DNA from: a virus
Reading direction: 5' to 3' (one strand)
Length of the DNA: 41,278 nucleotides
Virus record (IMG/VR): IMGVR_UViG_3300048583_000035
Location: 1 to 41,278 of that record
The position numbers and the translations under genes were made by a program. How positions within the stretch are numbered: the stretch's first letter is position 1; every line of letters begins with the position of its first letter. This document shows, in pieces, positions 6,746 through 30,466 of this stretch. The notes under the pieces were generated by a model that saw only the letters and a program-made list of their open reading frames with translations, made no database searches and was not told where the DNA came from.

Positions 6746-6845
6746 ATTGCCTCCAGATGAGAGTGACGAAAGTGCATGTCAGTTCTCATCCGTAAGGCGG
6801 GACGGTCGCCGAAAGAGCGGTGCCGGCATCTCGCCGGCTGGTCGG

Positions 6846-7775
6846 TCAGCCTTTGGCCTGCAGCTTGCGTTTCGCGGCGAAATACTCGGTCATGTCGCCA
6901 GTCTGCAAACCCTTTTCCCGAAGCTGTTCGAGCTTCCGGTTTGCGCCCATTGTAGCGGCAGCGCCCGCAACTGTGCCACGCACCTCACGCTCAGGTGCCG
7001 GTGCAGTCTTGTTGCGGGTCGTGACTTTCAATATCGTCTCCAGCTTTGCCACTGCAAATGCGAACTTCACCGGGTCCGTAATGGCGGCCAATTCCTTGGC
7101 CTTTGCGGGGCTCTTGCCCAGCGCATACACCACATGCGCGGCATTCTCGGCGCCTTGGATGATGATGCCCTGCTGCACGACGGAGAGCGTGTCTTGCACG
7201 GTCGCCTCGGCGTCCTCGTAGTCGGCCACCTTCAGCGCGCTCTTCGCCTTGCCGTAGGTTTCCAGCTTGGCCTGCCACGCGGCGCGGGCCTGATCTTCGG
7301 CGCGCTTGGCCTCTGCCGCTTGCGTGTCGGCCTGGCGCTTGCGGTCGTGCCACGCTTCAAGCTGCTCGGCGAACTTGTCGCCGTCGAAGTCGCAGCCTTC
7401 GAGCGTCGGCTTCTCGCCGACCACGACAGCGGCGGCCGGCTGCTGCGCTGCGCCCCTGATGCGCTCGACCTCGGCGTCTTTCTCGCGCAGCTTGCGCACG
7501 AGTTCGCGGTTCGTCTTGCGCAAGTCGCGCACCCAATCCGGCGCGCGGCTGTCCTGATCCTGCTCGGGCGGCTTCTCGTCGCCGATGGTGACGATTACCT
7601 CGTCGTCTGCGCCTGCGTCGGCGTCTGCCGCTGCGCCTTCGGCGTCTGATCCTTCGTCGGCCGCGTCTGCTGGCTTGTCGTCAGCGTCAGCGTCGTTGTT
7701 GCCGTCTGCCGGATCGTCCAAGACCGTCAGGTCGTCGTCGTTTCCAGCGTCGTCAGGATCAGGTTTCTCGCTCAT
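6846..7775 (-). CDS. scaffolding protein
   Basis: 309 aa with an extremely acidic N-terminus (DPDDAGNDDD..) followed by Ala/Glu/Lys-rich helical sequence. Located between the portal-adjacent gene and the coat gene. Confidence 0.6.
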   Translation of the reverse strand: MSEKPDPDDAGNDDDLTVLDDPADGNNDADADDKPADAADEGSDAEGAAADADAGADDEVIVTIGDEKPPEQDQDSRAPDWVRDLRKTNRELVRKLREKDAEVERIRGAAQQPAAAVVVGEKPTLEGCDFDGDKFAEQLEAWHDRKRQADTQAAEAKRAEDQARAAWQAKLETYGKAKSALKVADYEDAEATVQDTLSVVQQGIIIQGAENAAHVVYALGKSPAKAKELAAITDPVKFAFAVAKLETILKVTTRNKTAPAPEREVRGTVAGAAATMGANRKLEQLREKGLQTGDMTEYFAAKRKLQAKG

Positions 7776-7871: not shown

Positions 7872-8255
7872 CTAGGCTTCCATCCTGCGCGCAAACTCGG
7901 CCATTAGTTCCTGCGCGATGCACTGAATCGCGTATGCCTCTTGCTCTCTCCCGGGCTCTCGCTCTCCGATGTCGATGCAGTAGCTTTGCCAGACATGCAC
8001 GGCCTCGTGGACCAGCAAGCCGGCAACCTCGACAGGCTTTTTGCCTTGCCAGTTCTTCAAGCAAACGATGCAAACCGTAGTGCCGTCTTCGTTCTCCAGG
8101 GTGTGCATCGTGGCGTCGGCGAACTTGCCGACGCCGGGGAATCGGTCCTTGTGCCCGATGTGCCTCAAGGCCGCGTGGAACTCTTCATCGCTCAGGCACA
8201 GAGCCAGATAGGGGCCGGGCCTCGCAATCCTGCGGTCAAGCCATGCCGTCTTCAT
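7872..8255 (-). CDS. HExxH-motif protein (putative Zn-metallopeptidase), translationally coupled to portal
   Basis: 127 aa. Contains ..GLLVHEAVHVWQ.. plus a downstream ..EQEAYAIQ.. segment. Its ATG overlaps the portal stop (ATGA). Confidence 0.45.
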   Translation of the reverse strand: MKTAWLDRRIARPGPYLALCLSDEEFHAALRHIGHKDRFPGVGKFADATMHTLENEDGTTVCIVCLKNWQGKKPVEVAGLLVHEAVHVWQSYCIDIGEREPGREQEAYAIQCIAQELMAEFARRMEA

Positions 8256-12781: not shown

Positions 12782-13642
12782 TCAATCTCCGCAGAAGCAT
12801 GCGATGGCTTCTTCGTTGTCGTGGCCGAATGCGTCGATCTGATTCGCGGCAGCCTGCGCCATGCCGGCGTAGCTGTCGCGGTCCATCCGAAAGCGCCACG
12901 CGCCGCCGCTCTTGCGTTCAACGAAATTGGCTGCGGCGTAATCCTCCTGCTTCACCCACCACACAGAACGGCTCGGGCGCTCTGCGATCAGGCTGCGCAC
13001 TTGGCTGGCAGGCTTCAGGAAACAAAGCACGCAATTTCCTGCCGTGGTGCGGCCGTTGCGACTCGGCAATTCCAGGTCGAAATCCTGCGCAGCCCAAAAG
13101 GCGCCAACGTCCGCAACTGAAATGCCAGCATCTGCCAACGGCAGCGCTCGCCAGCCTCTGCCACGGCCGCCCTTCGGGTCGGCGCGCATCTTCGCCACGC
13201 GGCGCGGCTCGTCAGCACGAACACCGACAAAGCTGTCCCAGTCCTCCCAACCAATGGCGCGAAGGTGGCGCTCCATCGTCAGGATCTTCAATTCCACGGT
13301 GCAGAAGCGGGCCACCGGGTTCGGCAGGTATCGCCGCTTGCGGATGATGGCCTCGAACGGCTCTCCGTTGCGGCTGGCCGTGTCGAAGTCCACAAGCGCG
13401 TAGCCCTGCGCATCGTCGCGGTACTCCACCCAGGTAATGGGCACGCCCCATTGCATCCCGCATTCGCGCACAAAGCGCAGCGTGGCCTCATCCTCCAAGC
13501 CGGTGTTGGCGAAGCAAACAACCGCGTCGGCCGGCAATCCGGTGTTGGCCTGCAGCACGCGCCACAGCATGTAGCCGCTTGTCCGGCCGCCGCTGAAACT
13601 AATGCACGTCGGGCCGGTGATCTTGAACGGGTCGTGGCTCAT
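12782..13642 (-). CDS. PAPS-reductase-like PP-loop protein
   Basis: 286 aa from ATG 13642 (ATGA overlap with the upstream stop). PP-loop ..CISFSGGRTSGYML.. near the N-terminus and a C-terminal Cys pair ..IACFCGD. Confidence 0.7.
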   Translation of the reverse strand: MSHDPFKITGPTCISFSGGRTSGYMLWRVLQANTGLPADAVVCFANTGLEDEATLRFVRECGMQWGVPITWVEYRDDAQGYALVDFDTASRNGEPFEAIIRKRRYLPNPVARFCTVELKILTMERHLRAIGWEDWDSFVGVRADEPRRVAKMRADPKGGRGRGWRALPLADAGISVADVGAFWAAQDFDLELPSRNGRTTAGNCVLCFLKPASQVRSLIAERPSRSVWWVKQEDYAAANFVERKSGGAWRFRMDRDSYAGMAQAAANQIDAFGHDNEEAIACFCGD

Positions 13643-14464: not shown

Positions 14465-14880
14465 GCCGCCACCTCGAACACGCTCGCCGGCCCGACCTTG
14501 CCCAGCGGCCTGGCCTTGTGCGCCTCGATGACGCGATGTATCGGCGCGCGATCCGACCACGCTTCATGCCGATCAAACGCCCGCCTCGGCGTCCGCAGCC
14601 GGTCGCGCTCTGCACGCTCTGCGCGCTTTTGCTCGTTGTTTCGCTGGCGCTCTTCGCTCAAGTGCACGCGCGCTGCAGCGGCATGCTCTGACAGCACCAG
14701 CAGGCTTGCCGGCCGCTGCCGAAACGCCGCAATCTCGCCCTTGTCGCGCAGGTCGTTGGCGACCTTGCAGACCGCCTTGGATGTCACGCCGAGCGTCTTG
14801 GCCGCGTCTGTTGACGCAATGCCCAGCGGGTGCGATTCCAGCAGCACTAGCAGCCGCTTCGTGATGGTGTTGTGCTTCAT
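14461..14880 (-). CDS. winged-helix DNA-binding protein
   Basis: 139 aa. MarR-like N-terminus ..LLVLLESHPLGIASTDAAKTLGVTSKAVCKVANDLRDKGEI.. and a basic C-terminal half. Confidence 0.55.
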   Translation of the reverse strand: MKHNTITKRLLVLLESHPLGIASTDAAKTLGVTSKAVCKVANDLRDKGEIAAFRQRPASLLVLSEHAAAARVHLSEERQRNNEQKRAERAERDRLRTPRRAFDRHEAWSDRAPIHRVIEAHKARPLGKVGPASVFEVAA

Positions 14881-19689: not shown

Positions 19690-19718
19690 TTGACCGCAAG
19701 TTAACCCGGCGATAAGAT
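19690..19718 (+). promoter_or_regulatory. PL-like promoter for the plus-strand early-left operon
   Basis: TTGACC-17 nt-TAAGAT lies in the 134-bp gap between the repressor gene and the first early-left ORF. Confidence 0.45.
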
Positions 19719-22297: not shown

Positions 22298-22708
22298 ATG
22301 ACCGCTGTAGCAGCATCAAGCGTTCGCATCCGCAGCATGGCAGATGGCACGCTTCGCGCCGAAATTGATTTCGAGCCGCGCGACGCTGCTGCAGCGTTTG
22401 CCATGCTTGGACAGCCCGGCCAGCCCATCGCTGTGGCGCCGCTCAAGACGGCAGCGCAACAACAGGCGCAGGAGGCGGCGCCAAAGGCCGCAGGCGGGCC
22501 GCTGGCGAAGCTGGCGGGGCAGTGGTGCCAGATGCCGCAGTTCCTCGCGTGGAGCGGCTGCAACACGGCTGACGCCGCCGCAGAGTTCATCCGGCGCGAG
22601 TGCGGCATCAGCAGCCGCGCCGAGCTTGACCACAACGCGGCAGCGGCTGCAGCGTTCCACACGCACATCCGCGAGCCGTTTTCAACGTACATGAAGGGCA
22701 CAGGATGA
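22298..22708 (+). CDS. hypothetical early protein
   Basis: 136 aa containing ..WCQMPQFLAWSGC..AAEFIRRECGISSRAELD... Confidence 0.5.
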   Translation: MTAVAASSVRIRSMADGTLRAEIDFEPRDAAAAFAMLGQPGQPIAVAPLKTAAQQQAQEAAPKAAGGPLAKLAGQWCQMPQFLAWSGCNTADAAAEFIRRECGISSRAELDHNAAAAAAFHTHIREPFSTYMKGTG

Positions 22709-23202
22709 CATCGCTTCTACTCATCGCTCAGGAATACCGGGCAGCAGCGGCGCAGCTTGCCGACCTCGACCTCCCGGCAGAAGTCGTCTCCGACACGCTG
22801 GAGAGCCTGGCCGGCGACATTGAAACCAAAGCGCAGAGCGTGGCGCACATGGTCCGCAGCTTGGAAGCGCAAGCCGCCGCCGTGAAGCAGTGGGCGAAGG
22901 ACGCCAGCGAGCGCGCGAAGGCCATCGAAGCACGCGCCGAACGGCTGCGCGAGTACCTGAGCAGCAACATGCAGGCATGCGGCATTCAGCGCATCGAAGG
23001 ACCGGGCATCACGCTGAGCTTTCGCAAGACGAGCGCCGTCGTGATCGATGACGAAGCGCAGATTCCGGCAGCGTACATGCGGCAGAAGCCGCCGCCGCCT
23101 GCGGAGCCGGACAAGCTGGCGCTGGCCGCTGCGCTGAAGACCGGCGAGACGATCCCGGGCGCGCGGCTGGAAACGCGGCAGGCGCTGCAGGTGCGGGCTT
23201 GA
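22705..23202 (+). CDS. Siphovirus Gp157-like protein
   Basis: 165 aa. Coiled-coil N-terminal half and a characteristic C-terminus ..EPDKLALAAALKTGETIPGARLETRQALQVRA. Confidence 0.6.
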   Translation: MTSLLLIAQEYRAAAAQLADLDLPAEVVSDTLESLAGDIETKAQSVAHMVRSLEAQAAAVKQWAKDASERAKAIEARAERLREYLSSNMQACGIQRIEGPGITLSFRKTSAVVIDDEAQIPAAYMRQKPPPPAEPDKLALAAALKTGETIPGARLETRQALQVRA

Positions 23203-23300
23203 ACGCAACAGCTAACCTGGACCCGACAGCATGAGCAACGATTCACGAAGCGAGACCCCGGCGCATGCTGTCGGGGCTCAGGTTCAGCGAGGGGTTAGGC
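23198..23300 (-). repeat. attC-like site S1 (array-distal boundary; left box degenerate)
   Basis: Plus strand: CTTGAAC-GCAACA-GCT-AACCTG-GACCCGACAGCATG(30-nt loop)CATGCTGTCGGGGC-T-CAGGTT-C-AGC-GAGGG-GTTAGGC. The left box overlaps the TGA of the Gp157-like gene. Confidence 0.65.
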
Positions 23301-23302
23301 GC

Positions 23303-23578
23303 GTGGTGTGCGCAGCCCTGCGAGCTACAGACGGCCGGCTACTGCTGGGAATACGGCACTACAGCCAAGACATGCACGACCAACTGGCGCAACGTGCTGA
23401 CCGCGACCGCTTCCTGCTGCGGCTAGACCCGAACCAGGGCTTCGTTGACCAGCACGGCGTGTACATGACGCGGGAGGAAGCCTACCGAGTTGCCGAAGCG
23501 GCTGGGCAGATTGCCTACCCGGAGCGTTGCGGACGTGGCCTTGAAGGGCCGAAGCTTTACAGCGAAGGACTGTACTGA
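23303..23578 (+). CDS. hypothetical protein (cassette 1)
   Basis: 91 aa from GTG 23303, 8 nt after the GAGGGG of S1. The alternative ATG 23231 lies inside the S1 stem. Sequence ..VVCAALRATDGRLLLGIRHYS..GFVDQHGVYMTREEAYRVAEAAGQI..LYSEGLY. Confidence 0.55.
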   Translation: MVCAALRATDGRLLLGIRHYSQDMHDQLAQRADRDRFLLRLDPNQGFVDQHGVYMTREEAYRVAEAAGQIAYPERCGRGLEGPKLYSEGLY

Positions 23579-23585
23579 TGCAAGC

Positions 23586-23670
23586 GCCTAACGTAAAGCT
23601 AACCGGCGCCTGCACGGCGCCGTGAGTAGCACCCTTGCCGGAGGGCGTCCGGTTCAGCGAAATGTTAGGC
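23586..23670 (-). repeat. attC-like site S2
   Basis: Plus strand: GCCTAAC-GTAAA-GCT-AACCGG-CGCC..(branched loop)..GGCG-T-CCGGTT-C-AGC-GAAAT-GTTAGGC. Confidence 0.75.
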
Positions 23671-23688
23671 GCGTGGTGCCGGAGCGAG

Positions 23689-24012
23689 ATGATGACTGAA
23701 GACCAAGTACGCGAGATGGTGAAGGAGTGTGGCCTTGACTGGCAGCGCGGGTACATGCCGATGTTTGATGGCGATCCAACGAACCGCTATGCGGCGCTGG
23801 TCAACGCCGCGCGAACGAACGCCCTGCAAGACGCCGCCCGCTGGGTGGACGAAGAAGTGGGCCACGCCGTGCAAGATGGCTGGAGCGTTGAAGCGGTGCA
23901 GGCCCTGATGGCGACGCGGGACATGCTCCGGGCGCACGCCGACATGAATGCGACGACCGTTGAGGTAATCCCAAGCGCCGATACGCCAACTTGGCGCGAC
24001 GGTGTGCGTTGA
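23689..24012 (+). CDS. hypothetical protein (cassette 2)
   Basis: 107 aa, with GGAG 5 nt upstream of ATG 23689. MMTEDQVREMVKECGLDWQRGY... Confidence 0.6.
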   Translation: MMTEDQVREMVKECGLDWQRGYMPMFDGDPTNRYAALVNAARTNALQDAARWVDEEVGHAVQDGWSVEAVQALMATRDMLRAHADMNATTVEVIPSADTPTWRDGVR

Positions 24013-24014
24013 GG

Positions 24015-24072
24015 GCCTAACGTTGCAATTAAGCGGCTGCCGTAGGCGGTCCGCTTGAATTGCTTGTTAGGG
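24015..24072 (-). repeat. attC-like site S3 (58 bp)
   Basis: Plus strand: GCCTAAC-GTTGC-AATT-AAGCGG-CTGCC(GTA)GGCGG-T-CCGCTT-G-AATT-GCTT-GTTAGGG. The bulges are T24050 and G24057. Confidence 0.85.
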
Positions 24073-24097
24073 CGCTGGTGGAGAAACGGGACGAACT

Positions 24098-24760
24098 ATG
24101 CACGCCACATGCCGCTGGTGCGGACACGCTGAACGAGAGCACGACCGGCAGTATGGGTGCGGCGAGTGCGATTGCGAACACTTTGAAAGGGAAAGAACGA
24201 TGAGCATGGACCATGTGCAACTAGCCCGCGCGCTGTGGGTGTGGTTTGGCTACCGCATTGACGAGAGCAGCGAGCCAGGCGCAGACCCGCGCGTTGACGC
24301 GCTCGCCGAGAAACTGGAAGAGTGGATTCCGGCCTTGCCCTACGAGCCGCTACACAGTGACCAGATTGAGCGCATTGCGCTTGAGTTGGGATGGGACCTT
24401 GACCAAGGGCGCGTAGGCGGCGACCTTGACACTTTTGCGCGCTACGTCGAGCAGGCGCACGGCATTTGCATTACCAACATGGCCGGAGGTGGCAAGGCCG
24501 ACCGCTACGTGAGCCACAACAAGAAAGTGGGGAACATTGGGCCTGCCAACCTGCCGCGCCTAGAAGTGGACGCGGCACACTGCCGGCGCATGGCATGCGG
24601 CGTGCAGGAATGGATGGCGCAGGGCTCAAACCCGGACGAGATGCCGAAGCCGCAGATTGCCGCGCTGGCGTTGCTGGTGAAGGAGCTTTGCACCGAAGTC
24701 CGACGCCTAGGCGAAGACAACACAACGCCGATGCAGCCGCATGCGCACGGGTTGATGTGA
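24098..24760 (+). CDS. hypothetical protein with N-terminal CxxC..CxxC motif (cassette 3)
   Basis: 220 aa starting MHATCRWCGHAEREHDRQYGCGECDCEHF... An in-frame alternative start is ATG 24200, preceded by AAGGGA. Confidence 0.55.
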   Translation: MHATCRWCGHAEREHDRQYGCGECDCEHFERERTMSMDHVQLARALWVWFGYRIDESSEPGADPRVDALAEKLEEWIPALPYEPLHSDQIERIALELGWDLDQGRVGGDLDTFARYVEQAHGICITNMAGGGKADRYVSHNKKVGNIGPANLPRLEVDAAHCRRMACGVQEWMAQGSNPDEMPKPQIAALALLVKELCTEVRRLGEDNTTPMQPHAHGLM

Positions 24761-24767
24761 GCGAGCG

Positions 24768-24866
24768 CCCTAACGGTCGAAGTGGGCCGGAGACCCGGCC
24801 AAAAGGAACGTGATGACTGAGCAAACGACGGAAGCCGGGGCTCTCGGCTCGACTGAGGGGTTAGGC
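24768..24866 (-). repeat. attC-like site S4 (long loop carries SD and ATG of cassette 4 ORF)
   Basis: Plus strand: CCCTAAC-GGTCGA-AGT-GGGCCG-GAG-A-CCCGGC(34-nt loop)GCCGGG-G-CTC-T-CGGCTC-G-ACT-GAGGG-GTTAGGC. The loop contains AAGGAA and ATG 24813. Confidence 0.75.
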
Positions 24867-25133
24867 CTGGAGCCGGAGCGCGCAGCGTTTGAGCGCTGGT
24901 ACGCCACGACTGACGCGCGCTGGTGGAACACAAGCGATGCGGCATTTGCGGCGTGGCGCGCGGCCGTGGCGGCAGAGCGCGAGCGGTGCGCCGTCGCCGC
25001 TTGGAGCCACTACATGGACATTTGCAAGAAGCGCGGGCTACCTGCCGCAATGTTTGATGATTGGTGCGCAGCAGGGGCCATACGCGGGCCTAACGTGGGA
25101 GTTAAGCCGCAGACACCGGCCGCGCCGACGTAA
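24813..25133 (+). CDS. hypothetical protein (cassette 4)
   Basis: 106 aa. The start lies in the S4 loop, and no in-frame start exists for 100 nt after the S4 right box. The ORF reads through the S5 left box (CCT AAC) and stops in the S5 loop. Confidence 0.6.
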   Translation: MTEQTTEAGALGSTEGLGLEPERAAFERWYATTDARWWNTSDAAFAAWRAAVAAERERCAVAAWSHYMDICKKRGLPAAMFDDWCAAGAIRGPNVGVKPQTPAAPT

Positions 25134-25188
25134 CCACACACACAAATGCTGGCAGCCGGTGGCTGTCGGCTTGAACGACTAGTTAGGG
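25088..25188 (-). repeat. attC-like site S5
   Basis: Plus strand: GCCTAAC-GTGGGA-GTT-AAGCCG-CAGAC..(loop)..GGCTG-T-CGGCTT-G-AAC-GACTA-GTTAGGG. The minus strand contains GTTCAAGCCGAC and CGGCTTAACTC. Confidence 0.85.
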
Positions 25189-25214
25189 CTCAGCGCCCGC
25201 CACAGGAGTGAACC

Positions 25215-25502
25215 ATGTACGTGATTGCAACCGAAAGCCGCCGCAAAGACGAAGTGCTGTTTATGGTGGACCGGAACCGCCAGCGCGCCAGCTTTTGGAG
25301 CAACCGCCTTAACGACGCCATGAAGTACGGCGACAAGTCTGCGGCCCAGCAGAAAGCTACAAAGCTGCGATTCAACCGGCCGCGCGTGCTGACGCTTCAA
25401 GACGCTGCGCGCATTGCTGGCGAGCAGGCACGCGAGCATGAGCATGAGCAAGCGATGGCCGACGATGAGGCCGGATGGGATGGGCACAAGGGGCATTTCT
25501 GA
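25215..25502 (+). CDS. hypothetical protein (cassette 5)
   Basis: 95 aa with a GGAG SD. MYVIATESRRKDEVLFMVDRNRQRASFW... Confidence 0.6.
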   Translation: MYVIATESRRKDEVLFMVDRNRQRASFWSNRLNDAMKYGDKSAAQQKATKLRFNRPRVLTLQDAARIAGEQAREHEHEQAMADDEAGWDGHKGHF

Positions 25503-25503
25503 G

Positions 25504-25561
25504 CCCTAACGCCCGAGTTCACGCGGCGCCGTAGGCGCTCGCGTGGAACGAAGTGTTAGGC
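25504..25561 (-). repeat. attC-like site S6 (58 bp)
   Basis: Plus strand: CCCTAAC-GCCCGA-GTTC-ACGCG-GCGCC(GTA)GGCGC-T-CGCGT-G-GAAC-GAAGT-GTTAGGC. Confidence 0.85.
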
Positions 25562-25591
25562 ATCACTTTTACCGAAGCGAAGGGAGCGACG

Positions 25592-25906
25592 ATGGACATT
25601 GACACTGCAGACCATGTGCTGCACGGCCCGAGCGGCGAAACCTGGGTGGTGGCCTACGTTGAAGGCGACCGGCTGGCTTGGTGCGGGTGGCCCGAAGGCG
25701 AGGCAAAGCTGGCCGATTGCACGCTGCTGAAGAAGGCCACTACCGAGCAGCGTGACAAGCTGCTGCTGGAGATGGCCGATTGCACGAACGACCGTCGCGG
25801 AAGGTATGCGCGGCAGCGCCTTGATTTGAACGACTGCCCGCGAACAAGCCGGTTAAACATGGACAGGGACCGGATGTGGGCAGAGCACGGCATCCCTGGC
25901 GCGTGA
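25592..25906 (+). CDS. hypothetical protein (cassette 6)
   Basis: 104 aa from ATG 25592, preceded by AGGGAG. MDIDTADHVLHGPSGETWVVAYVEGDRLAWCGWPEGE... Confidence 0.6.
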   Translation: MDIDTADHVLHGPSGETWVVAYVEGDRLAWCGWPEGEAKLADCTLLKKATTEQRDKLLLEMADCTNDRRGRYARQRLDLNDCPRTSRLNMDRDRMWAEHGIPGA

Positions 25907-25907
25907 T

Positions 25908-25965
25908 GCCTAACGGCCAAGCTCACCTGCCGCCGCAGGCGGTCAGGTGCAGCGAGGGGTTAGGC
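25908..25965 (-). repeat. attC-like site S7 (58 bp)
   Basis: Plus strand: GCCTAAC-GGCCAA-GCT-CACCTG-CCGCC(GCA)GGCGG-T-CAGGTG-C-AGC-GAGGG-GTTAGGC. Confidence 0.85.
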
Positions 25966-25984
25966 CCCAACTTGGAGAACTGAA

Positions 25985-26317
25985 ATGACGGTGATGAGCA
26001 ACGAAGACACGGCGCTGCCGGAGACGACCGAAGACGAGGCTTGGTACGACGCCGAGATTGCCCCGGCGCTGGCCGCGCTTGCGAAGCGGTGCCACGAGCG
26101 CGGGATGTCGTTTATTGCAGCGGTGGAGTACCAGCCCGGCGACCGGGCGGGCACCTACTACCTGACGCAAGACGCCGGAACTGCTATGCGCATGCTGCAC
26201 CTGTGCGCGCAGACCGTGCCAAACGTGGACGGCTACATCATGAGCCTACGCAAGTGGGCCGATGCCAACGGTGTGGACACCGGCGGCAGCTTTGTGATGC
26301 GGCGCCTTGGGGCCTAA
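25985..26317 (+). CDS. hypothetical protein (cassette 7)
   Basis: 110 aa with a GGAG SD. The stop codon is the TAA inside the S8 left box (GCC TAA C). Confidence 0.6.
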   Translation: MTVMSNEDTALPETTEDEAWYDAEIAPALAALAKRCHERGMSFIAAVEYQPGDRAGTYYLTQDAGTAMRMLHLCAQTVPNVDGYIMSLRKWADANGVDTGGSFVMRRLGA

Positions 26318-26380
26318 CGTTGCCGGTAACCGGCCCGTTGCGGCTTGCCGCAATGGGTCCGGTTGACTGGCGTGTTAGGC
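26312..26380 (-). repeat. attC-like site S8
   Basis: Plus strand: GCCTAAC-GTTGCC-GGT-AACCGG-CCCGTTGCGG(CTTG)CCGCAATGGG-T-CCGGTT-G-ACT-GGCGT-GTTAGGC. Confidence 0.85.
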
Positions 26381-26406
26381 AGCACTGTTGAACAACGAGG
26401 AAACGT

Positions 26407-26760
26407 ATGAGCAACCACACACCAGGGCCTTGGCATACAGCGACTGCTGACGAATGGCGCACTGCCAGCGGCGAGCATGCGCAGTGGGGCCGCTTTGACA
26501 TCAGCGCCGGCAGCAACGACCAGGCCGCAGAGAACTACTACCGCGTGGCCAGCGTGAGCAACGTGAACAACTCGGACCAGAACCTGGCCAATGCGAAGCT
26601 GATTGGGGCCGCGCCTGACCTACTGATGGCGCTGCGGGAGATTGCCGCCGACTACGCCGACCGATTTGACATGGACAGCCCGAGCACAAACCCCGGCATG
26701 AAGTACGTGGTGCAGCAGGCACGCGAGGCTATCGCGAAGGCGACGGGTTGTGCTGCCTAA
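26407..26760 (+). CDS. conserved hypothetical phage protein (cassette 8)
   Basis: 117 aa with a GAGGA SD. ..HTPGPWH..NLANAKLIGAAPDLLMALREI... The stop is the TAA inside the S9 left box. Confidence 0.6.
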   Translation: MSNHTPGPWHTATADEWRTASGEHAQWGRFDISAGSNDQAAENYYRVASVSNVNNSDQNLANAKLIGAAPDLLMALREIAADYADRFDMDSPSTNPGMKYVVQQAREAIAKATGCAA

Positions 26761-26812
26761 CGTTCGTATTGAGCCGCAGCCGTAGGCTGTCGGCTCGAAT
26801 ACGGGGTTAGGG
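26755..26812 (-). repeat. attC-like site S9 (58 bp)
   Basis: Plus strand: GCCTAAC-GTTCGT-ATT-GAGCCG-CAGCC(GTA)GGCTG-T-CGGCTC-G-AAT-ACGGG-GTTAGGG. Confidence 0.85.
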
Positions 26813-26858
26813 CGCTGATGCCGGAGCGCGATCATGTTTGCGTGTTACAAAATAGTTG

Positions 26859-26886
26859 TTGACGCTGGCGGTTGCTGTGCTACAGT
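26859..26886 (+). promoter_or_regulatory. sigma70-like promoter inside cassette 9
   Basis: TTGACG-16 nt-TACAGT. The transcript would begin at the 22-nt leader that is shared with the promoter at 30494. Confidence 0.55.
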
Positions 26887-26891
26887 AACCA

Positions 26892-26913
26892 CATCGCAAC
26901 ACGCAACCCGGAG
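26892..26913 (+). repeat. 22-nt leader repeat, copy 1 (CATCGCAACACGCAACCCGGAG)
   Basis: Identical to 30528..30549. It ends in the GGAG Shine-Dalgarno sequence and contains the internal direct repeat CGCAAC-A-CGCAAC. Confidence 0.9.
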
Positions 26914-26919
26914 AGACAA

Positions 26920-27063
26920 ATGCAAACCACCTACTGGAACGGAGACCTGGCCCGCTACACCGGCAAGACCATGACATTGCACGGCGGGTTGTTCTACGAA
27001 ATCGAACTGCTTGAAGGCCACCTGAAGGGCCAAACCAAAGTCACGCAACGCGCCCCCAAGTAA
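26920..27063 (+). CDS. small hypothetical protein (cassette 9, gene 1)
   Basis: 47 aa: MQTTYWNGDLARYTGKTMTLHGGLFYEIELLEGHLKGQTKVTQRAPK. The ATG is 6 nt after the leader GGAG. Confidence 0.5.
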   Translation: MQTTYWNGDLARYTGKTMTLHGGLFYEIELLEGHLKGQTKVTQRAPK

Positions 27064-27075
27064 AGGAGACTTGAC

Positions 27076-27294
27076 ATGCACACCTTCCAAGTTGTTACCC
27101 GCGAAGTCCAACATGCCGGTCGTCAAATCACTGCTGACGTTGTGCGCAACGATGGGCGTGTCGTTCGCTCTGGCATGTGGCCCGACTATGCCGAGGCCGA
27201 CTGCGCACTGCTGAACGAGTATTGCGCTGGAGGCTGGACTGCTGCGCAGTACCACGCCGAGCGTGCTGTGCGTATGGCGTCTCTGCGCAAATGA
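27076..27294 (+). CDS. hypothetical protein (cassette 9, gene 2)
   Basis: 72 aa with an AAGGAG SD. Confidence 0.55.
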   Translation: MHTFQVVTREVQHAGRQITADVVRNDGRVVRSGMWPDYAEADCALLNEYCAGGWTAAQYHAERAVRMASLRK

Positions 27295-27476
27295 GCGCCG
27301 ACAAGAACAAAGGGGGGCGACCCCCGGCCCCGCCCGGCCTGCGCCGGGTAAACGTCCCGCTTCGCCTGCCCGAGTGGCTGGTGCAGTGGATGGCAGAGCA
27401 GGCCGAGACGCCTGCGGAGTTGATCGAAGCCGCACTGCTGAAGGCGCACAAGCTGCGCCCGCCGCGTGCGCCCTAA
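27291..27476 (+). CDS. ribbon-helix-helix-like small DNA-binding protein (cassette 9, gene 3)
   Basis: 61 aa with an ATGA overlap. ..KGGRPPAPPGLRRVNVPLRLPEWLVQWMAEQA..AELIEAALLKA... The stop is the TAA in the S10 left box. Confidence 0.5.
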   Translation: MSADKNKGGRPPAPPGLRRVNVPLRLPEWLVQWMAEQAETPAELIEAALLKAHKLRPPRAP

Positions 27477-27528
27477 CGTTCGAGCTAACTTGCCGCCGTA
27501 GGCGGTCAAGTTGAGCGAGGGGTTGTGC
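27471..27528 (-). repeat. attC-like site S10 (58 bp; variant right box GTTGTGC)
   Basis: Plus strand: CCCTAAC-GTTCGA-GCT-AACTTG-CCGCC(GTA)GGCGG-T-CAAGTT-G-AGC-GAGGG-GTTGTGC. Confidence 0.85.
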
Positions 27529-27563
27529 TTCACCCATCCGAAGCGCGCAACTGTAGGAACTAC

Positions 27564-27785
27564 ATGATTCTTGAAATGATGCCAACGCTGCTGATGCGCG
27601 CGTTCCATGTGCCAGAGGTGGTTGTGGACTGCGGGAAGCCCGACGACTTTGAAGGCACCGCCTGCGCCGCGTTTCTGATGTGGCGCATGGAGTACCCGGA
27701 CTACAGCGCGAAGCTGCGTATTCCTGAGCAGCCAGAGGCCGAGAAGGCGCTGAACCGGGCACTCTTCCGTAGGCGTGCCGCGTGA
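27564..27785 (+). CDS. hypothetical protein (cassette 10)
   Basis: 73 aa from ATG 27564, preceded by AGGAA. MILEMMPTLLMRAFHVPEVVVDCGKPDDFEG... Confidence 0.55.
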   Translation: MILEMMPTLLMRAFHVPEVVVDCGKPDDFEGTACAAFLMWRMEYPDYSAKLRIPEQPEAEKALNRALFRRRAA

Positions 27786-27786
27786 A

Positions 27787-27879
27787 GCACAACGCAGAAG
27801 TAACCGGCTTCGGCCGAGCGGAGGATCGATGACCAACGAACGTACGCCGGCCGAAGTCCGGTTGACTGCCGGGTTAGGC
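27787..27879 (-). repeat. attC-like site S11 (variant left box GCACAAC; loop carries SD and ATG)
   Basis: Plus strand: GCACAAC-GCAGA-AGT-AACCGG-CTTCGGCCG(31-nt loop)CGGCCGAAG-T-CCGGTT-G-ACT-GCCGG-GTTAGGC. The loop contains GGAGGA and ATG 27829. Confidence 0.8.
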
Positions 27880-28128
27880 CCGCTGCCCGAGCCAGCCGCA
27901 GAAGCGGTGATGGACTTATGCGCCGACCACCAAGGGCCAGTAGAGGCATGGCAGTACCTGCCGGCCGACGCGATGCTCTACACCGCGAACCAGATGCGCA
28001 GCTATGCCGCCGCAGAGATGGTGCGTGCAGTTTCCGCAGAGCGTGCGCGCTGGACAGAAGCGGTGATGGCCGAGCTTGACGGCAACGGCCAGGCGCACGC
28101 CATCGTGGACTATGCGACAAGGGCCTAA
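27829..28128 (+). CDS. hypothetical protein (cassette 11)
   Basis: 99 aa from the loop ATG (an alternative ATG 27910 lies after the site). The stop is the TAA in the S12 left box. Confidence 0.55.
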   Translation: MTNERTPAEVRLTAGLGPLPEPAAEAVMDLCADHQGPVEAWQYLPADAMLYTANQMRSYAAAEMVRAVSAERARWTEAVMAELDGNGQAHAIVDYATRA

Positions 28129-28218
28129 CGACGAAGCTGAACGGGAGCCCACGCATGACCAAGCCTGAAAACGCACCCGCCGCTGCCGTGGGCTCTCCGT
28201 TCGAGCGCCCTGTTGGGC
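28123..28218 (-). repeat. attC-like site S12 (variant right box GTTGGGC; loop carries ATG)
   Basis: Plus strand: GCCTAAC-GACGAA-GCT-GAACGG-GAGCCC(39-nt loop with ATG 28155)GGGCTC-T-CCGTTC-G-AGC-GCCCT-GTTGGGC. Confidence 0.8.
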
Positions 28219-28544
28219 GGCCGGTGCCGGAGCGCGTGACCTTGGCGTGCCTGCTGGTGCAGCAAAACTTCAAGCCCGGCGACCAGGCGCCACAAGGCTA
28301 CTTGGCGTGGCACGAGTGGGCCGAGGTGCAGCACAAGGCCGGGTTGCGGCAGAAGCAGTGCGGCCGGTGCGGGCTGTGGCGCTACCCGCAGCAGTTGAGC
28401 GCAGAGGTTGACCGCGCCGAGCTTGTGATGACGAAGAAGCGCAAGTCGCGGCGCGTGACGGTGGAGACGCCGGTCTGCAACGACTGCCACAAGCCGCCCA
28501 ACGTGGGAGCTAAGTTGGAGACAACGGCGCCCGCACAGAACTGA
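28155..28544 (+). CDS. zinc-ribbon protein (cassette 12)
   Basis: 129 aa containing ..CGRCGLWRYP..(28)..CNDC... It starts in the S12 loop and stops in the S13 loop after reading through the left box GCCCAAC. Confidence 0.6.
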   Translation: MTKPENAPAAAVGSPFERPVGRPVPERVTLACLLVQQNFKPGDQAPQGYLAWHEWAEVQHKAGLRQKQCGRCGLWRYPQQLSAEVDRAELVMTKKRKSRRVTVETPVCNDCHKPPNVGAKLETTAPAQN

Positions 28545-28603
28545 CCGGAGCATGACGGCGCAGATGGGCGCCGTTGGCTCTCAACTTGAGCGACAGGTTA
28601 GGC
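28496..28603 (-). repeat. attC-like site S13 (variant left box GCCCAAC)
   Basis: Plus strand: GCCCAAC-GTGGGA-GCT-AAGTTG-GAGACAACGGCGCCC(33-nt loop)GGGCGCCGTTGGCTC-T-CAACTT-G-AGC-GACAG-GTTAGGC. Confidence 0.8.
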
Positions 28604-28630
28604 CACGCTGTGGCCGAAGCGAGGTAAAGC

Positions 28631-28852
28631 ATGAGAAGCACACGATCTAACCTGATGGCGATTGCAGCAATCGCGGCGATGGGCGCGGGGCTGGCGCAGG
28701 CGGCAATGCCGGCGCCGCGCAAGGGCAGTAACCGTGACTACAAGCCCACGCCACCGCGCTGCGACACAGCGCTGGCGCGCGAAATTGCCGAGCACAACGA
28801 AGCCGTCGAGCGCCGCAAGGCTGAAAAGAAGGCGCGGAAGCTGGCGCGCTGA
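28631..28852 (+). CDS. small secreted basic protein (cassette 13)
   Basis: 73 aa with a GAGG SD. Signal-peptide-like MRSTRSNLMAIAAIAAMGAGLAQA. Confidence 0.6.
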   Translation: MRSTRSNLMAIAAIAAMGAGLAQAAMPAPRKGSNRDYKPTPPRCDTALAREIAEHNEAVERRKAEKKARKLAR

Positions 28853-28860
28853 ATTGCGTG

Positions 28861-28911
28861 GCCTAACGTGTTTTAGGCCACACCATCGGAAACTCTGCAC
28901 AAGTTTTAGGC
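28861..28911 (-). other. attI-like simple site plus a direct-repeat copy (int-proximal end of the array)
   Basis: The minus strand reads GGCCTAAAACACG|TTAGGCC (plus 28861-28879). This compares with the recalled class-1 attI1 core GCCCTAAAACAAAG|TTAGGC. GTTTTAGGC recurs 33 bp away (28870-28878 and 28903-28911). No L stem or bulges are present here. Confidence 0.6.
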
Positions 28912-28913
28912 AC

Positions 28914-29198
28914 ATGCGAAGCTACTACGCCCCATCGACGCGCCACAACGGCAGCGAACGCAGCGACATCCTGAGCCGCGAGCGCGAGCCGTACACGCGA
29001 CCGCTACCGTACATCGGTCGGCTGTTGATCGCGCTGCCGGGCTACAGCATTGATTGGACGCTGCGGCAGGACATGCGCGACATGCGGCGCTTCTATGCGC
29101 TCGGCGCAGATGGCGAGCGGCTGGCCCATGCCGCGCCGAAGGAGTTGCTGCGCAGCGTTGCGCTGCTGGTGCCGCGCTACAGCGTGGCGGAGGATTGA
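28914..29198 (+). CDS. hypothetical protein between the attI-like site and xis
   Basis: 94 aa: MRSYYAPSTRHNGSERSDILSREREPYTRPLPYIG... The ATG abuts the second GTTTTAGGC repeat. Confidence 0.5.
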   Translation: MRSYYAPSTRHNGSERSDILSREREPYTRPLPYIGRLLIALPGYSIDWTLRQDMRDMRRFYALGADGERLAHAAPKELLRSVALLVPRYSVAED

Positions 29199-29201
29199 GC
29201 G

Positions 29202-29408
29202 TTGAAGCAAGACGAAGAAAAGTACATCCCGCTACTTGAGTGGGGCGCTAGGCGTTACGGCTCGCTTGCGTCTGAGTACACGCTGCGCCAGTGGGCGAAG
29301 AGTGGCGAGATATATCCGCCGCCGCAGAAGGTCGGCAATCGATGGGCTGTGCTGCCGACTGCGCAGCGGATAGTAGATGGCAGGCTTCCGCTGGTGTCGC
29401 GGCTGTGA
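29202..29408 (+). CDS. xis: excisionase, lambda Xis-like
   Basis: TTG 29202 lies 7 nt after GGAGGA. ..YIPLLEWGARRYGSLASEYTLRQWAKSGEIYPPPQKVG.. parallels recalled lambda Xis MYLTLQEWNARQRRPRSLETVRRWVRECRIFPPPVKDG. Confidence 0.7.
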   Translation: MKQDEEKYIPLLEWGARRYGSLASEYTLRQWAKSGEIYPPPQKVGNRWAVLPTAQRIVDGRLPLVSRL

Positions 29409-30466
29409 ACGCAGCCCGTCGCCAGCGCAGCCGCAGCACCTGGCCGCGCGGAATGATGGAACCGCGCCCCGGGTACTACGCCTGGCGCCATCCAGACGGC
29501 CGAACGTTTGCAATCGGCCGCGTGCCGCTGTCGCACGCAATCGCCGAGGCCGCCGCTGCGAATGCGCACCTCGAAAGCCTGAAGCCGGGCCTAGTCGAGC
29601 GGCTGACCGGCGCAGACCGCACCGTGGCCGACCTGCTCGGCAAGATGGACCCGGCCCGCACGCCGAACACTGCAAAGAGCATGCGCAGCCTGGACAAGAT
29701 CATCACCGCCGCAATCGGCACCGTGCCATGCGGGCAGTTGACCGTGCGCCAGTGCGCCGACTTGATCGAAAGCATCCGCGAAGCTGGCAAGGAGCGCAGC
29801 GCGCAGGCCGTGCGCTCGCGCCTAGTGTCGGCGTGCAAGCTGGGCGGCGAACTCGGCTGGATGGAGAGCAACCCGGCCGCCATGACGCGCGCCCGCAAGG
29901 TGACAACGAAGCGCGGCCGGCTGACGCTGGAAACGTTCCGCGCGATCTACGCGAAGGCTGGCGAGGTCGCAGAGTGGCTACCGCACGCAATGATGCTGGC
30001 GCTGGTGACCGGCGCAGACCGCGTGACGATCACGCGCATGACGCGGGACATGGTGGCCGATGGGCACCTGACGTACCGGCGCAGCAAGACGGGCGCCGCT
30101 GTGGCCGTGCCGCTGCGGCTGCGGCTGGATGCTGTGGGCGTGACGCTGGATGAGCTTGTGCGGCCGAAGACGGGCGTCGTGAGCCGGTATCTGGTGCACC
30201 ACGTCAACCCGCACGGCAACGCGCCTGCGGGGAGCGCGGTGTTTCCGGATCGCGTGTCGAAGGCGTTCACGGCTGCGCGCAAGTTGGCTGGGTTGCCGGA
30301 CGAGGGCGCGGGGACTTTTCACGAGCTGCGGTCGCTGTCGAAACGCTTGTATGACCAGCAGGGCGGAGTAGACACCAGAGCCCTCCTCGGTCACAAGACG
30401 CAGAAGATGGCCGACATGTATGCCGACCCGCGAGGCATAGAGGCGATCCGGGTGCGGGTGGCATGA
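29405..30466 (+). CDS. int: tyrosine integrase, lambda Int family (arm-binding N-terminus)
   Basis: 353 aa from GTG 29405 (GTGA overlap with xis). ..RPGYYAWRHPDGRTFAIG.. and ..TFHELRSLSKRLY..ALLGHKTQKMADMYADPRG.. align with recalled lambda Int (..NGYYCYRDPRTGKEFGLG.. and ..TFHELRSLSARLY..HLLGHKSDTMASQYRDDRG). Confidence 0.85.
   Translation: MNAARRQRSRSTWPRGMMEPRPGYYAWRHPDGRTFAIGRVPLSHAIAEAAAANAHLESLKPGLVERLTGADRTVADLLGKMDPARTPNTAKSMRSLDKIITAAIGTVPCGQLTVRQCADLIESIREAGKERSAQAVRSRLVSACKLGGELGWMESNPAAMTRARKVTTKRGRLTLETFRAIYAKAGEVAEWLPHAMMLALVTGADRVTITRMTRDMVADGHLTYRRSKTGAAVAVPLRLRLDAVGVTLDELVRPKTGVVSRYLVHHVNPHGNAPAGSAVFPDRVSKAFTAARKLAGLPDEGAGTFHELRSLSKRLYDQQGGVDTRALLGHKTQKMADMYADPRGIEAIRVRVA

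Follow-up and report, generated by a model that had tools for sequence, protein, structure and literature searches.

Are the imperfect palindromes that separate the small open reading frames (ORFs) of this phage's accessory region integron attC sites, and do the genes between them form mobile cassettes? The window analysed here is the whole stretch of DNA (41,278 nt, IMG/VR record IMGVR_UViG_3300048583_000035). Our answer is that it very probably carries a genuine integron-type cassette array in the early rightward operon of a complete P22-like temperate phage, formed and oriented as described below.

The initial annotation had claimed thirteen attC-like folded sites of 58-108 bp sharing one internal order, and had proposed an attC covariance search as a check. 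A strict structural scanner found 13 sites in the window and no more, every one on the + strand, within 23198-28603 and in the same length range (58-108 nt); shuffled sequence gave about one. A covariance model (R2) trained only on the bottom strands of bona fide and experimentally validated attC sites matched 13/13, all on the + strand and at full length, with no other match in the window and with E-values of 1.6e-8 to 2.4e-4 for 12 of them. The following sites rest on ssDNA folding, the strict scanner and model R2, which gave the bit scores.

23198-23300, + strand: attC S1, 103 nt, 5′ box CTTGAAC, 3′ box GTTAGGC, bulges C and T, 15.8 bits
23586-23670, + strand: attC S2, 85 nt, GCCTAAC...GTTAGGC, 41.6 bits, E 2.8e-8
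24015-24072, + strand: attC S3, 58 nt, GCCTAAC...GTTAGGG, 40.4 bits
24768-24866, + strand: attC S4, 99 nt, CCCTAAC...GTTAGGC, 30.7 bits, RBS and ATG (24813) in the loop
25088-25188, + strand: attC S5, 101 nt, GCCTAAC...GTTAGGG, 40.1 bits
25504-25561, + strand: attC S6, 58 nt, CCCTAAC...GTTAGGC, 41.0 bits
25908-25965, + strand: attC S7, 58 nt, GCCTAAC...GTTAGGC, 34.2 bits
26312-26380, + strand: attC S8, 69 nt, GCCTAAC...GTTAGGC, 32.8 bits
26755-26812, + strand: attC S9, 58 nt, GCCTAAC...GTTAGGG, 42.6 bits, E 1.6e-8
27471-27528, + strand: attC S10, 58 nt, CCCTAAC...GTTGTGC, 31.7 bits
27787-27879, + strand: attC S11, 93 nt, GCACAAC...GTTAGGC, 26.4 bits, RBS and ATG (27829) in the loop
28123-28218, + strand: attC S12, 96 nt, GCCTAAC...GTTGGGC, 32.7 bits, RBS and ATG (28155) in the loop
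28496-28603, + strand: attC S13, 108 nt, GCCCAAC...GTTAGGC, 30.2 bits

The ssDNA folds of all 13 sites agree with the claimed internal order: a box, an unpaired spacer (6/5 nt, or 5/5 in S2 and S11), a 3-bp L box, one bulged base, 6 bp, a bulged T, an apical stem and a variable loop. On the + strand both bulges are in the 3′ arm; the first is G in ten sites and C in S1, S2 and S7, as had been annotated, and the second is T in 13/13. Fold stability z-scores range from -2.3 to -7.4, and the sites are about 80% identical to each other over 58 nt. The window contains 25 copies of CCTAAC where 5.6 would be expected; 21 of them fall in the 23.2-28.9 kb interval, alternating + then -. The annotated 5′ box fails for S1, whose true 5′ box is CTTGAAC (23198-23204), overlapping the stop codon of the upstream Gp157-like gene; the GCTAAC noted there is the L box plus stem.

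Moreover, the likeness to class 1/aadA attC sites (attC_aadA7, attC_aadA2, attC_gcuF) extends to RYYYAAC/GTTRRRY boxes, a 6/5-nt spacer, a 3-bp L box, extrahelical G and T 6 bp apart on the bottom-strand 3′ arm, a variable terminal loop, the 58-108 nt length and even the loop motif CGTAG. In architecture the phage sites agree base for base with the bottom strand published for aadA7. Covariance models detect each other's sites both ways: model R1, trained on 5 phage sites, retrieved attC_aadA2 (58 bits, E 1.5e-13), attC_gcuF and attC_aacA4 from real class 1 integrons, on the bottom strand. When the phage-derived structural scanner was run on 56 kb of plasmid DNA it found only 4 sites, and 4/4 were true attCs on the bottom strand. 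The identification of the 23198-28603 sites as integron-type attC sites of the aadA/class-1-like kind is supported by these data.

Such hairpins could also be RNA or transcription elements (intrinsic terminators, RNase processing sites, mRNA stabilisers) or REP-like repeats, with a merely coincidental likeness to attC. They do lie between ORFs and fold stably, and sense transcription leaves room for a side effect on the mRNA. The stems are not followed by T-tracts, however, terminators are not enriched (15 found against 12.3 expected), an Rfam search gave no match, and models of real attC sites match 13/13 on one strand only. Neither the complementarity of neighbouring boxes nor the box-exact breakpoints described below has an RNA-level explanation. 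We regard this reading as close to refuted and give it next to no weight.

In 13/13 cases a site's 3′ box is perfectly complementary to the next site's 5′ box, including the variant pairs GTTGTGC/GCACAAC and GTTGGGC/GCCCAAC, while only 3/13 are complementary to the 5′ box of their own site (permutation P = 2.5e-5). This is the signature of circular cassettes.

Comparison with related phage contigs shows that backbones 99-100% identical differ in cassette content, with breakpoints exactly at RYYYAA|C in three independent contig pairs. The window and contig L001 share 99.05% identity over 740 bp up to CTTGAAC-G (breakpoint 23204/23205) and carry unrelated cassettes beyond; the Gp157-like protein is 100% identical in L001 despite these different cassettes. 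Contigs L096 and L099 are 100% identical as far as GCCTAACGTT and unrelated after it. L238 and L239 are unrelated upstream, where their backbones encode RecT/YqaJ and ERF, respectively, and then 99.97% identical from inside the 5′ box. Of 44 informative matches between arrays, 28 stop at the downstream site's 5′ box. The presence/absence polymorphism with breakpoints at a CCTAA|C-type box that the initial annotation proposed to look for is thus found, and the invariant gene content that would have refuted it is the opposite of what is observed. The interior of an attC travels with the ORF downstream of it in 4 informative pairs and with the ORF upstream of it in 0. This linkage rests on few near-identical pairs; in diverged cassette pairs (87% identity) the interior of the upstream attC is not conserved, and S10 has an identical interior in L001 with different boxes.

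Present shuffling could alternatively proceed by homologous recombination, the sites being of attC origin and now serving the phage recombination module as linker homologies. T4-type PeSLs (promoter-early stem-loops) and lambdoid boundary sequences, conserved elements between genes that border small accessory genes, have been proposed to mediate modular shuffling of phage genomes and are thought to act in this way. The array lies directly downstream of recombination genes (Gp157 here, RecT/YqaJ or ERF in L238 and L239), its sites share some 80% identity over 58 nt, and the window has no intI. The three mapped junctions, however, have homology on one side only, besides 3-4 nt of the box, so homologous exchange cannot produce them. 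A pair of complementary variant boxes around one cassette requires a circular intermediate that was cut inside the R box, and the match ends cluster at one position instead of spreading along the conserved arms. These junctions differ from PeSLs and boundary sequences by a site-specific, circular-intermediate signature, and we consider homologous shuffling unlikely.

Applying the boundary rule from the relatives' breakpoints at RYYYAA|C gave 13 cassettes of 316-753 bp, each reading on the + strand as C, attC interior, GTTRRRY, 1-3 ORFs and RYYYAA. All are on the + strand.

23204-23591, +: cassette 1, S1 interior and ORF 23231-23578 (115 aa, phrog_839)
23592-24020, +: cassette 2, ORF 23689-24012 (107 aa), homologue in L087 87% identical
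24021-24773, +: cassette 3, ORF 24098-24760 (220 aa), Cys-rich N-terminus
24774-25093, +: cassette 4, ORF 24813-25133 (106 aa), start in the S4 loop, end in the S5 loop
25094-25509, +: cassette 5, ORF 25215-25502 (95 aa, phrog_29068)
25510-25913, +: cassette 6, ORF 25592-25906 (104 aa)
25914-26317, +: cassette 7, ORF 25985-26317 (110 aa), stop codon formed by the TAA of the next CCTAAC box
26318-26760, +: cassette 8, ORF 26407-26760 (117 aa, phrog_1273, cluster record PF27050 Phage_P22_Y8K6)
26761-27476, +: cassette 9, three small ORFs (26920-27063, 27076-27294, 27291-27476)
27477-27792, +: cassette 10, ORF 27564-27785 (73 aa), flanked by complementary variant boxes GTTGTGC and GCACAA
27793-28128, +: cassette 11, ORF 27829-28128 (99 aa), start in the S11 loop
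28129-28501, +: cassette 12, ORF 28155-28544 (129 aa) running into the S13 loop, flanks GTTGGGC and GCCCAA
28502-28866, +: cassette 13, ORF 28631-28852 (73 aa), hydrophobic N-terminus, nearest the attI-like site

The 15 between-site ORFs show no similarity to each other, as had been annotated. Cassette 9 has its own promoter-like site (26859-26886) within a 20-nt inverted repeat, and its last ORF has copies about 92% identical in at least six other arrays, the match ending at the 5′ box. The coding strand of the phage is the attC bottom strand, the recombinogenic one. In each cassette the attC therefore precedes its ORF, the reverse of the canonical integron order, and the ORFs are antisense to the conventional attC top strand. 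Unlike class 1/aadA attC sites, the phage sites lie 5′ of their own ORF and partly overlap it: the ORFs of cassettes 1, 4, 11 and 12 begin within attC loops, some of which carry an RBS and start codon, and those of cassettes 4 and 12 extend into the following site.

The array could be a piece of a host chromosomal integron, passively captured by illegitimate recombination or imprecise excision and carried as cargo without a platform role. There is a precedent in Vibrio anguillarum prophages (PMC9892861), intI is missing, and most cassette ORFs are without known function. Three, however, match PHROG families, and every one of the ORFs runs in the direction of the phage operon, on the attC bottom strand, opposite to chromosomal arrays. 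Similar arrays were found in dozens of IMG/VR contigs; of 173 inter-site segments in 50 viral arrays, codon scoring assigned 150 an ORF on the bottom strand. Arrays of this type, oriented alike, recur across many phage backbones that differ from one another, and some of these arrays have a conserved attI-like end; cassettes also differ between near-identical backbones. We therefore consider passive capture very unlikely.

The array is placed between a recombination-module gene of the Gp157 family and orf94-xis-int, with the following flanking features.

19690-19718, + strand: promoter-like site TTGACC-17-TAAGAT, a consensus match only, at the head of the early operon, whose extent through the array is inferred from ORF orientation
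22705-23202, + strand: Sipho_Gp157 family backbone gene (Pfam PF05565, E 7e-43), stop codon inside the first R box
28861-28879, - strand: attI-like simple site, reading GGCCTAAAACAC-G|TTAGGC against GCCCTAAAACAAAG|TTAG in attI1
28903-28911, + strand: second GTTTTAGGC copy, 32 nt downstream of the first
28914-29198, + strand: orf94, a backbone gene conserved downstream of the array; L003 has a homologue following its own array, and a family search gave no match
29202-29408, + strand: excisionase Xis (Pfam PF07825 Exc, E 1.4e-7)
29453-30466, + strand: phage integrase of the lambda type (Pfam Phage_integrase, Phage_int_M, Arm-DNA-bind_1)

A folded site had been annotated in every gap up to 28.9 kb; the 13 sites stand, but some ORFs overrun the gaps, and 28861-28911 is not an attC and resembles attI. 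The array terminates here in a single R box (28861-28867), with a CTAAC|GTGTTTTAG junction that also forms the array end in about ten other viral contigs. By analogy with the attI1 direct repeats, the second GTTTTAGGC copy may serve as an accessory binding site; this function is only inferred.

No intI was found in the window, which has neither an NCBIfam integron-integrase match nor tblastn similarity to IntI1. The integrase at 29453-30466 was ruled out as an integron integrase by its lambda-type domains and lack of IntI similarity. The array is therefore formally a CALIN (an attC cluster without integron integrase), and its current activity, which we only infer, is unproven. True IntI is present in some related viral contigs with the layout cassettes-attI-intI-int; a protein of L094 matches TIGR02249 (integron integrase) with 425 bits against a cutoff of 265. 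IntI relatives are encoded at 48 viral loci, where attC sites lie only upstream of intI, on the intI strand, and only intI-strand ORFs have Pfam matches (DNA methylases, DUF5131). In these relatives a classical integrase and tail genes follow downstream, and the attI sequence differs from the window's, AAC|TTCAATTCG. No intI was seen in the retrieved DNA of the ~10 arrays with the window-type attI-like end.

Could the phage's own lambda-type Int, with Xis, exchange the cassettes? Both genes are found on the same strand, 0.3-0.6 kb past the attI-like site, mimicking the position of intI in the relatives. We find this hard to credit: the enzyme has an arm-binding domain and core domains of the lambda type and is not similar to IntI, the intI-bearing relatives retain a separate classical integrase beside intI, and arrays with the same attI-like end also adjoin lysis and terminase genes with no integrase nearby.

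The order and strand of attC bottom strands, attI-like site and integrase gene are those of a canonical class 1 integron, as are the resemblance of the attI-like core to attI1, the crossover G|TT on the top strand (AA|C on the bottom) and the newest cassette beside attI. Unlike in canonical integrons, intI is absent from the window and the cassette ORFs face attI and int; no Pc expression from intI/attI is possible, so phage promoters would be required. For the integron-type array, we infer that cassettes would have entered as circles, cut by a tyrosine recombinase at RYYYAA|C on the folded bottom strand, and inserted at a site like attI1, the halves of which now lie on either side of the array: putatively CTTGAA|C at 23198-23204, the S1 box inferred to be the distal half of the ancestral attI, and C-GTG-TTTTAGGCC at 28867-28879. 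The recombinase would be IntI supplied in trans, by a host integron or by related phages, some of which carry intI in the layout given above. On the host side, a single genome scan gave one short MAG contig and nothing more. Expression of the cassette ORFs is inferred to depend on read-through of transcription that starts at the phage early promoter.

The initial annotation knew of no such array in a phage. Integrons and clusters of 2-4 attC sites have been reported in phage genomes, and five phage attCs were validated by recombination with IntI1 (Qi, Rajabal, Ghaly, Tetu and Gillings 2023, PMC9892861), so that view is right only in part and the window array is not a new category. It shares with those CALINs the lack of intI and, among its relatives' cassettes, orphan DNA methyltransferases. 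It differs from the published cases, with 2-4 sites or captured pieces of host chromosomal integrons (PMC9892861), in its 13 cassettes forming an internal, by inference co-transcribed, module, in its uniformly bottom-strand ORFs and attI-like end, and in the recurrence of its type in dozens of IMG/VR contigs, some with intI just before the phage int. The array points to a site-specific route by which phages swap accessory genes.

The window is the whole contig (41,278 bp). Its nucleotides 1-100 recur elsewhere in it, presumably at the end (the position was not mapped); the longer stretch 1-200 does not. A direct terminal repeat of at least 100 nt is therefore suggested, as would arise from circular assembly or from terminal redundancy of a full genome, and it is because of this repeat, itself only suggested, that the window is taken as complete. 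The genes around the array are as follows.

Minus strand: P22-type portal, large terminase, P22 stabilisation protein, beta-helix tailspike, helicase and Toprim protein
~19.7-31 kb, plus strand: block of plus-strand genes
22705-23202, plus strand: Sipho_Gp157-family gene
28914-29198, plus strand: small conserved ORF (orf94)
29202-29408, plus strand: excisionase (Pfam Exc)
29453-30466, plus strand: lambda-type integrase

The order Gp157 gene, array, conserved ORF, xis and int places the array interval at the position of the lambdoid exo-to-xis accessory region. A near-identity search of phage GenBank with the window matched only a coat gene (74% identity) and found nothing related to the array. 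With Gp157 as query, the genome scan gave one short MAG contig as its sole match, and the metagenome scan gave 15 relatives (35-64% identity), none with attC sites; Gp157 relatives in the range 35-65% lack arrays. Gp157 is therefore no marker for the array, and the module is not bound to the Gp157 backbone. Outside the array, in the replication and structural half, a 335-aa gene of unknown function (12786-13612, minus strand) shares 89.6% DNA identity with positions 7979-8805 of a related viral contig (L183), where the copy lies between two attC sites; no attC remnant is present around the gene of the window.

The motif CCTAAC occurs 25 times in the window against 5.6 expected, and 21 copies lie within 23.2-28.9 kb, with strands alternating. 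A strict scanner (xxxxAAC, a 4-7-nt spacer, 3 + 6 + 4 bp, and two one-base bulges fixed on the 3' arm) found exactly 13 sites (S1-S13), all on the plus strand between 23198 and 28603; shuffled sequence gave about one. The initial annotation had proposed 13 attC-like folded sites of one shared architecture, and both points were reproduced. Folding each site as single-stranded DNA, together with the scanner, showed the central spacer to be unpaired, with an L box, a variable terminal structure and extrahelical bases on a single arm. The spacers are 6/5 nt (5/5 in S2 and S11). Also as first described, ten sites have G as the first bulged base, S1, S2 and S7 have C, and the second is T in 13/13. 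Two corrections concern the ends of the proposed array, 23198-28911. Both the RYYYAAC and the GTTRRRY box, a consensus that accommodates the variants GCACAAC, GCCCAAC, GTTGTGC and GTTGGGC, are present in 12/13 sites, but the 5' box of S1 is CTTGAAC at 23198, which is what the array-distal junction with attI should carry. The segment 28861-28911, considered as a fourteenth site (S14), has a fold unlike attC and no model match, and is read as attI-like instead.

The two bulges stand 6 bp apart on the 3' arm of the plus strand, which agrees with the aadA7 bottom strand. Element by element, S6 and the bottom strand of attC_aadA7 (Table S3 of Qi et al. 2023, PMC9892861) follow an identical plan:

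attC_aadA7, bottom strand: ATCTAAC GCTTGA ATT AAGCCG CGCCGC GAAG GCGGCG-T-CGGCTT-G-AAT GAATT GTTAGAC
S6, plus strand: CCCTAAC GCCCGA GTT CACGCG GCGCC GTA GGCGC-T-CGCGTG-G-AAC GAAGT GTTAGGC

A covariance model of five phage sites was searched against real class 1 integrons fetched from plasmids. It matched attC_aadA2 (58 bits, E 1.5e-13), attC_gcuF and attC_aacA4, in all cases on the strand opposite to the resistance genes. A second model was trained on eight bona fide attC bottom strands, namely aadA7, four phage attCs of Qi et al. validated with IntI1, aadA2, gcuF and aacA4. It recovered 13/13 sites of the window at full length on the plus strand, 12 of them with E values from 1.6e-8 to 2.4e-4, and nothing else in the window below E 0.1; with this model as surrogate, the attC assignment first made from the sequence alone passed a covariance search. 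The strict scanner, applied to 56 kb of plasmid DNA, returned four sites only: each is a true attC on the bottom strand, with a 6/5 spacer and the bulged bases G and T. An Rfam scan of the window gave zero matches.

Folded repeats such as these could instead be intrinsic terminators, for which a G+C-rich stem followed by a T-run is the criterion, or REP elements, for which it is dispersed copies genome-wide. This explanation fails: no T-run follows the sites, there is no terminator enrichment, all copies lie in one 5.4-kb array on one strand, and the covariation of the boxes would be left unexplained. By every test run, all of them on sequence, the 13 sites are attC sites; their recombination by IntI is inferred. 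The phage coding strand is the attC bottom strand. With 13 sites in 5.4 kb and intI nowhere in the 41-kb genome, the array satisfies the CALIN criterion (at least two attC sites arrayed, no intI nearby).

The 3' box of each site perfectly complements the 5' box of the next in 13/13 cases, and the 5' box of its own site in 3/13 (permutation P 2.5e-5). This holds for the rare pairs GTTGTGC/GCACAAC and GTTGGGC/GCCCAAC, as well as for the lone box that closes the array. Such complementarity between neighbours is the classical signature of former circular cassettes with one attC each. AA|C is the crossover where IntI cleaves the bottom strand. Read on the coding strand, a cassette is C + attC interior + GTTRRRY + ORF(s) + RYYYAA, so that start codons may sit in attC loops without being separated from their ORFs. 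The long loops of S4, S11 and S12, and of sites in three relatives (L001, L003 and L096), are long because they hold an RBS and a start codon. In the window these are:

24813, plus strand: start codon in the loop of S4
27829, plus strand: start codon in the loop of S11
28155, plus strand: start codon in the loop of S12

The N-termini of loop-started ORFs are encoded by the attC 3' arm and the R box, and several such cassettes have similar leaders, e.g. ...G(S/L)(T/S)EGLG.... The ORFs of cassettes 4 and 12 cross the cassette boundary and stop in the loop of the next site, and hence their C-termini depend on the adjoining cassette. The ORFs had been placed in the gaps between sites, but several start in loops or enter the next site. 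The 15 enclosed ORFs are mutually unrelated, as originally stated, with no similarity found among them, and Pfam and NCBIfam gave no matches to the cassette ORFs of the window.

The ORFs of the window lie on the attC bottom strand, as seen from the tiling of ORFs with RBS and start codons, from PHROG matches and from a codon score of 11:1. The criterion that cassette ORFs lie on the attC top strand and are expressed from Pc is not satisfied; in the class 1 control, ORFs lie on the top strand. Across the viral arrays, the codon model placed the ORF on the bottom strand in 150/173 segments. Comparison of the longest ORFs was too noisy in G+C-rich DNA, and the codon model was used instead. Purine skew was discarded, because in the class 1 control it was positive on the bottom strand though the ORFs are on the top strand. 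Canonically, recombination of the bottom strand sets cassette orientation for expression from Pc (PMC13108822), and in the array of the window this rule is inverted.

Cassette 9 (26834-27476) has a promoter-like site of its own, followed by three small ORFs:

26859-26886: promoter-like site, TTGACG-16-TACAGT with TG, inside a 20-nt inverted repeat (26838-26857 / 26887-26906)
27291-27476: last of the three ORFs, encoding a 61-aa protein

The 61-aa protein belongs to a 78-member cluster at 90% identity from many metagenomes, and its ORF recurs in at least six other arrays at ~92% DNA identity. Cassette 9 may be a self-regulated module. As an enriched motif, CCGGAGCG was rejected (5 copies in the window vs 4.4 expected). 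Four of the five copies lie 7-9 nt past the 3' R box of S2, S4, S9 and S12 (23679, 24873, 26821 and 28227), and the motif also follows sites in three related contigs (L001, L087 and L111). This may reflect a common RBS context or a further conserved element at the cassette 5' end.

Presence or absence of cassettes among relatives, with breakpoints at the boxes, had been proposed as a check and was found in three independent contig pairs, in each case with the breakpoint inside the 5' box. The Gp157 protein of L001 is identical to that of the window, and the DNA is 99.05% identical over 740 bp up to CTTGAAC-G, past which the cassettes are wholly different. L096 and L099 share 100% identity as far as GCCTAACGTT and are unrelated beyond. 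L238 (RecT/YqaJ backbone) and L239 (ERF backbone) are unrelated upstream and 99.97% identical from inside the 5' box onward, and the 5' box of each agrees with its own upstream neighbour. When ~230 inter-site units were compared, match ends clustered at the 5' box of the downstream site (28/44), and in four informative near-identical pairs the upstream attC interior moved with the ORF, the downstream interior never. Homologous exchange could also shuffle cassettes, but at the mapped junctions it fails, since homology is present on one side only.

Some sites in relatives are degenerate. A lone GCCTAAC box lies within a 239-aa ORF of L001 (2490-2496) and may mark the fusion of two cassettes after attC loss. 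In L003, the array begins two genes past Gp157, not directly after it, and its first site (6806-6848) consists of the 3' half only.

Joined, the flanks of the array read GGGCTTGAA|C-GTG-TTTTAGGCC. The proximal end on the minus strand (28861-28879) is GGCCTAAAACAC-G|TTAGGC (also written GGTGTGGCCTAAAACAC-G|TTAGGC) and resembles attI1, GCCCTAAAACAAAG|TTAG (GCAGTCGCCCTAAAACAAAG|TTAG), a sequence read in the locus L006 and present in at least 5000 plasmids without a mismatch (100% identity). After a further 32 nt comes a second GTTTTAGGC. The 28861-28879 site lies at the array end, and on the strand, expected for attI. Judged by this resemblance and placement, it is attI-like only, its function being untested. 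The junction CTAAC|GTGTTTTAG closes arrays in ~10 other viral contigs with differing downstream genes, such as endolysin, holin and terminase in L168; no intI was found downstream of ends of this type in other contigs. In L003, a tRNA-Leu(GAG) gene (14713-14784) directly follows the orf94 homologue and a short ORF, with no integrase between, which suggests that the prophage ends there and that int or attP is placed differently than in the window.

No match to IntI1 with E < 1 was found in the window by tblastn, and its only integrase is lambda-type, without a TIGR02249 match. For the idea that this phage Int acts on the cassettes there is no support. Two loci found through the attC motif carry IntI, and the protein of one (L094) scores 425 bits on TIGR02249. 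Homologous arrays adjoin true IntI genes in L094/L191, L111, L210, L212 and L218, which indirectly supports recombination of the sites by an integron integrase, and a search with the L094 IntI identified 48 viral (IMG/VR) loci that encode IntI relatives (L190-L237). Where upstream sequence is available, attC sites occur only upstream of intI and only on its strand; the attC/intI topology is thus canonical, but the cassette ORFs lie on the intI strand, to which Pfam matches (N6_N4 and D12 methylases, DUF5131) are confined. The attI of these loci differs from that of the window, reading AAC|TTCAATTCG...GCATAACAC ~60 nt ahead of the intI start. In L210 (9911-12434) and L218 (9857-12443), cassettes, attI and intI are followed by a classical tyrosine integrase of 430-440 aa, and in L203 and L226 phage tail genes lie further downstream of intI. 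In several ~40 kb contigs, intI is at the extreme contig end. A search for tRNAs beside IntI in the relatives gave no consistent attB-type tRNA. The layout of the window is that of these relatives minus intI. IntI would be supplied in trans by the host or by co-resident phages, which is inferred and not shown.

Orphan DNA methyltransferases (N6_N4, D12 and C5) often occur within the arrays of relatives or next to them, with three in one array of L111, which fits the view that some of the cassette pool acts against restriction.

Methyltransferases in or beside arrays of related viral loci
L111: 3615-10754
L191: 8263-9444
L210: 5145-6182
L212: 3491-4282
L218: 4192-6192
L238: 10427-11527

The 15-mer AGCGAGGGGTTAGGC matched at least 118 viral stretches, an unrelated 14-mer giving 50 matches in all. 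Among the AGCGAGGGGTTAGGC matches listed, 67 loci have at least two strict sites, nearly all oriented on a single strand. Passive capture of a host array could also bring attC sites into a phage; three observations make it unlikely: the orientation is uniformly inverted, cassette ORFs match phage families, and this array type recurs across phage backbones. The initial remark that no cassette array of this kind was known as a built-in module of a phage genome holds only in part: a survey of 10,705 phage genomes, in which five phage attCs were also validated, reported three integrons, one In0 and 17 small CALINs (Qi et al. 2023, PMC9892861). What remains of it is narrower. Beyond that study, we found no account in the literature searched of large, operon-embedded, ORF-inverted arrays, nor of the layout cassettes-attI-intI-int.

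Taking these observations together, we lean, though only slightly, towards the following reading as a whole. The arrays would belong to a phage-adapted integron lineage whose platform (attI with or without intI) lies where the early operon of a temperate phage ends, directly ahead of int. Since the cassette ORFs lie on the attC bottom strand, phage promoters would express them. Inverted cassettes would form a shared pool and pass between unrelated phage backbones through IntI-type recombination; orphan DNA methylases would be among them, along with many small genes of unknown function, plausibly for anti-defence or host takeover. The window, lacking intI, would be a member of this lineage dependent on the IntI of a host or co-resident phage.

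Small accessory ("moron") phage genes are usually thought to be gained by rare illegitimate or short-homology recombination. The junctions of these arrays show precise, reversible, site-specific movement of single genes between phages, and so a mechanism for mosaicism. The inverted gene orientation must have been selected by phage transcription. As clearly bounded units, the cassettes provide a catalogue of phage accessory genes, and many of these could have anti-restriction or anti-defence functions. Integron biology would reach from bacterial chromosomes and plasmids into core phage architecture, and cassettes could move between phage and bacterial integrons by this route.
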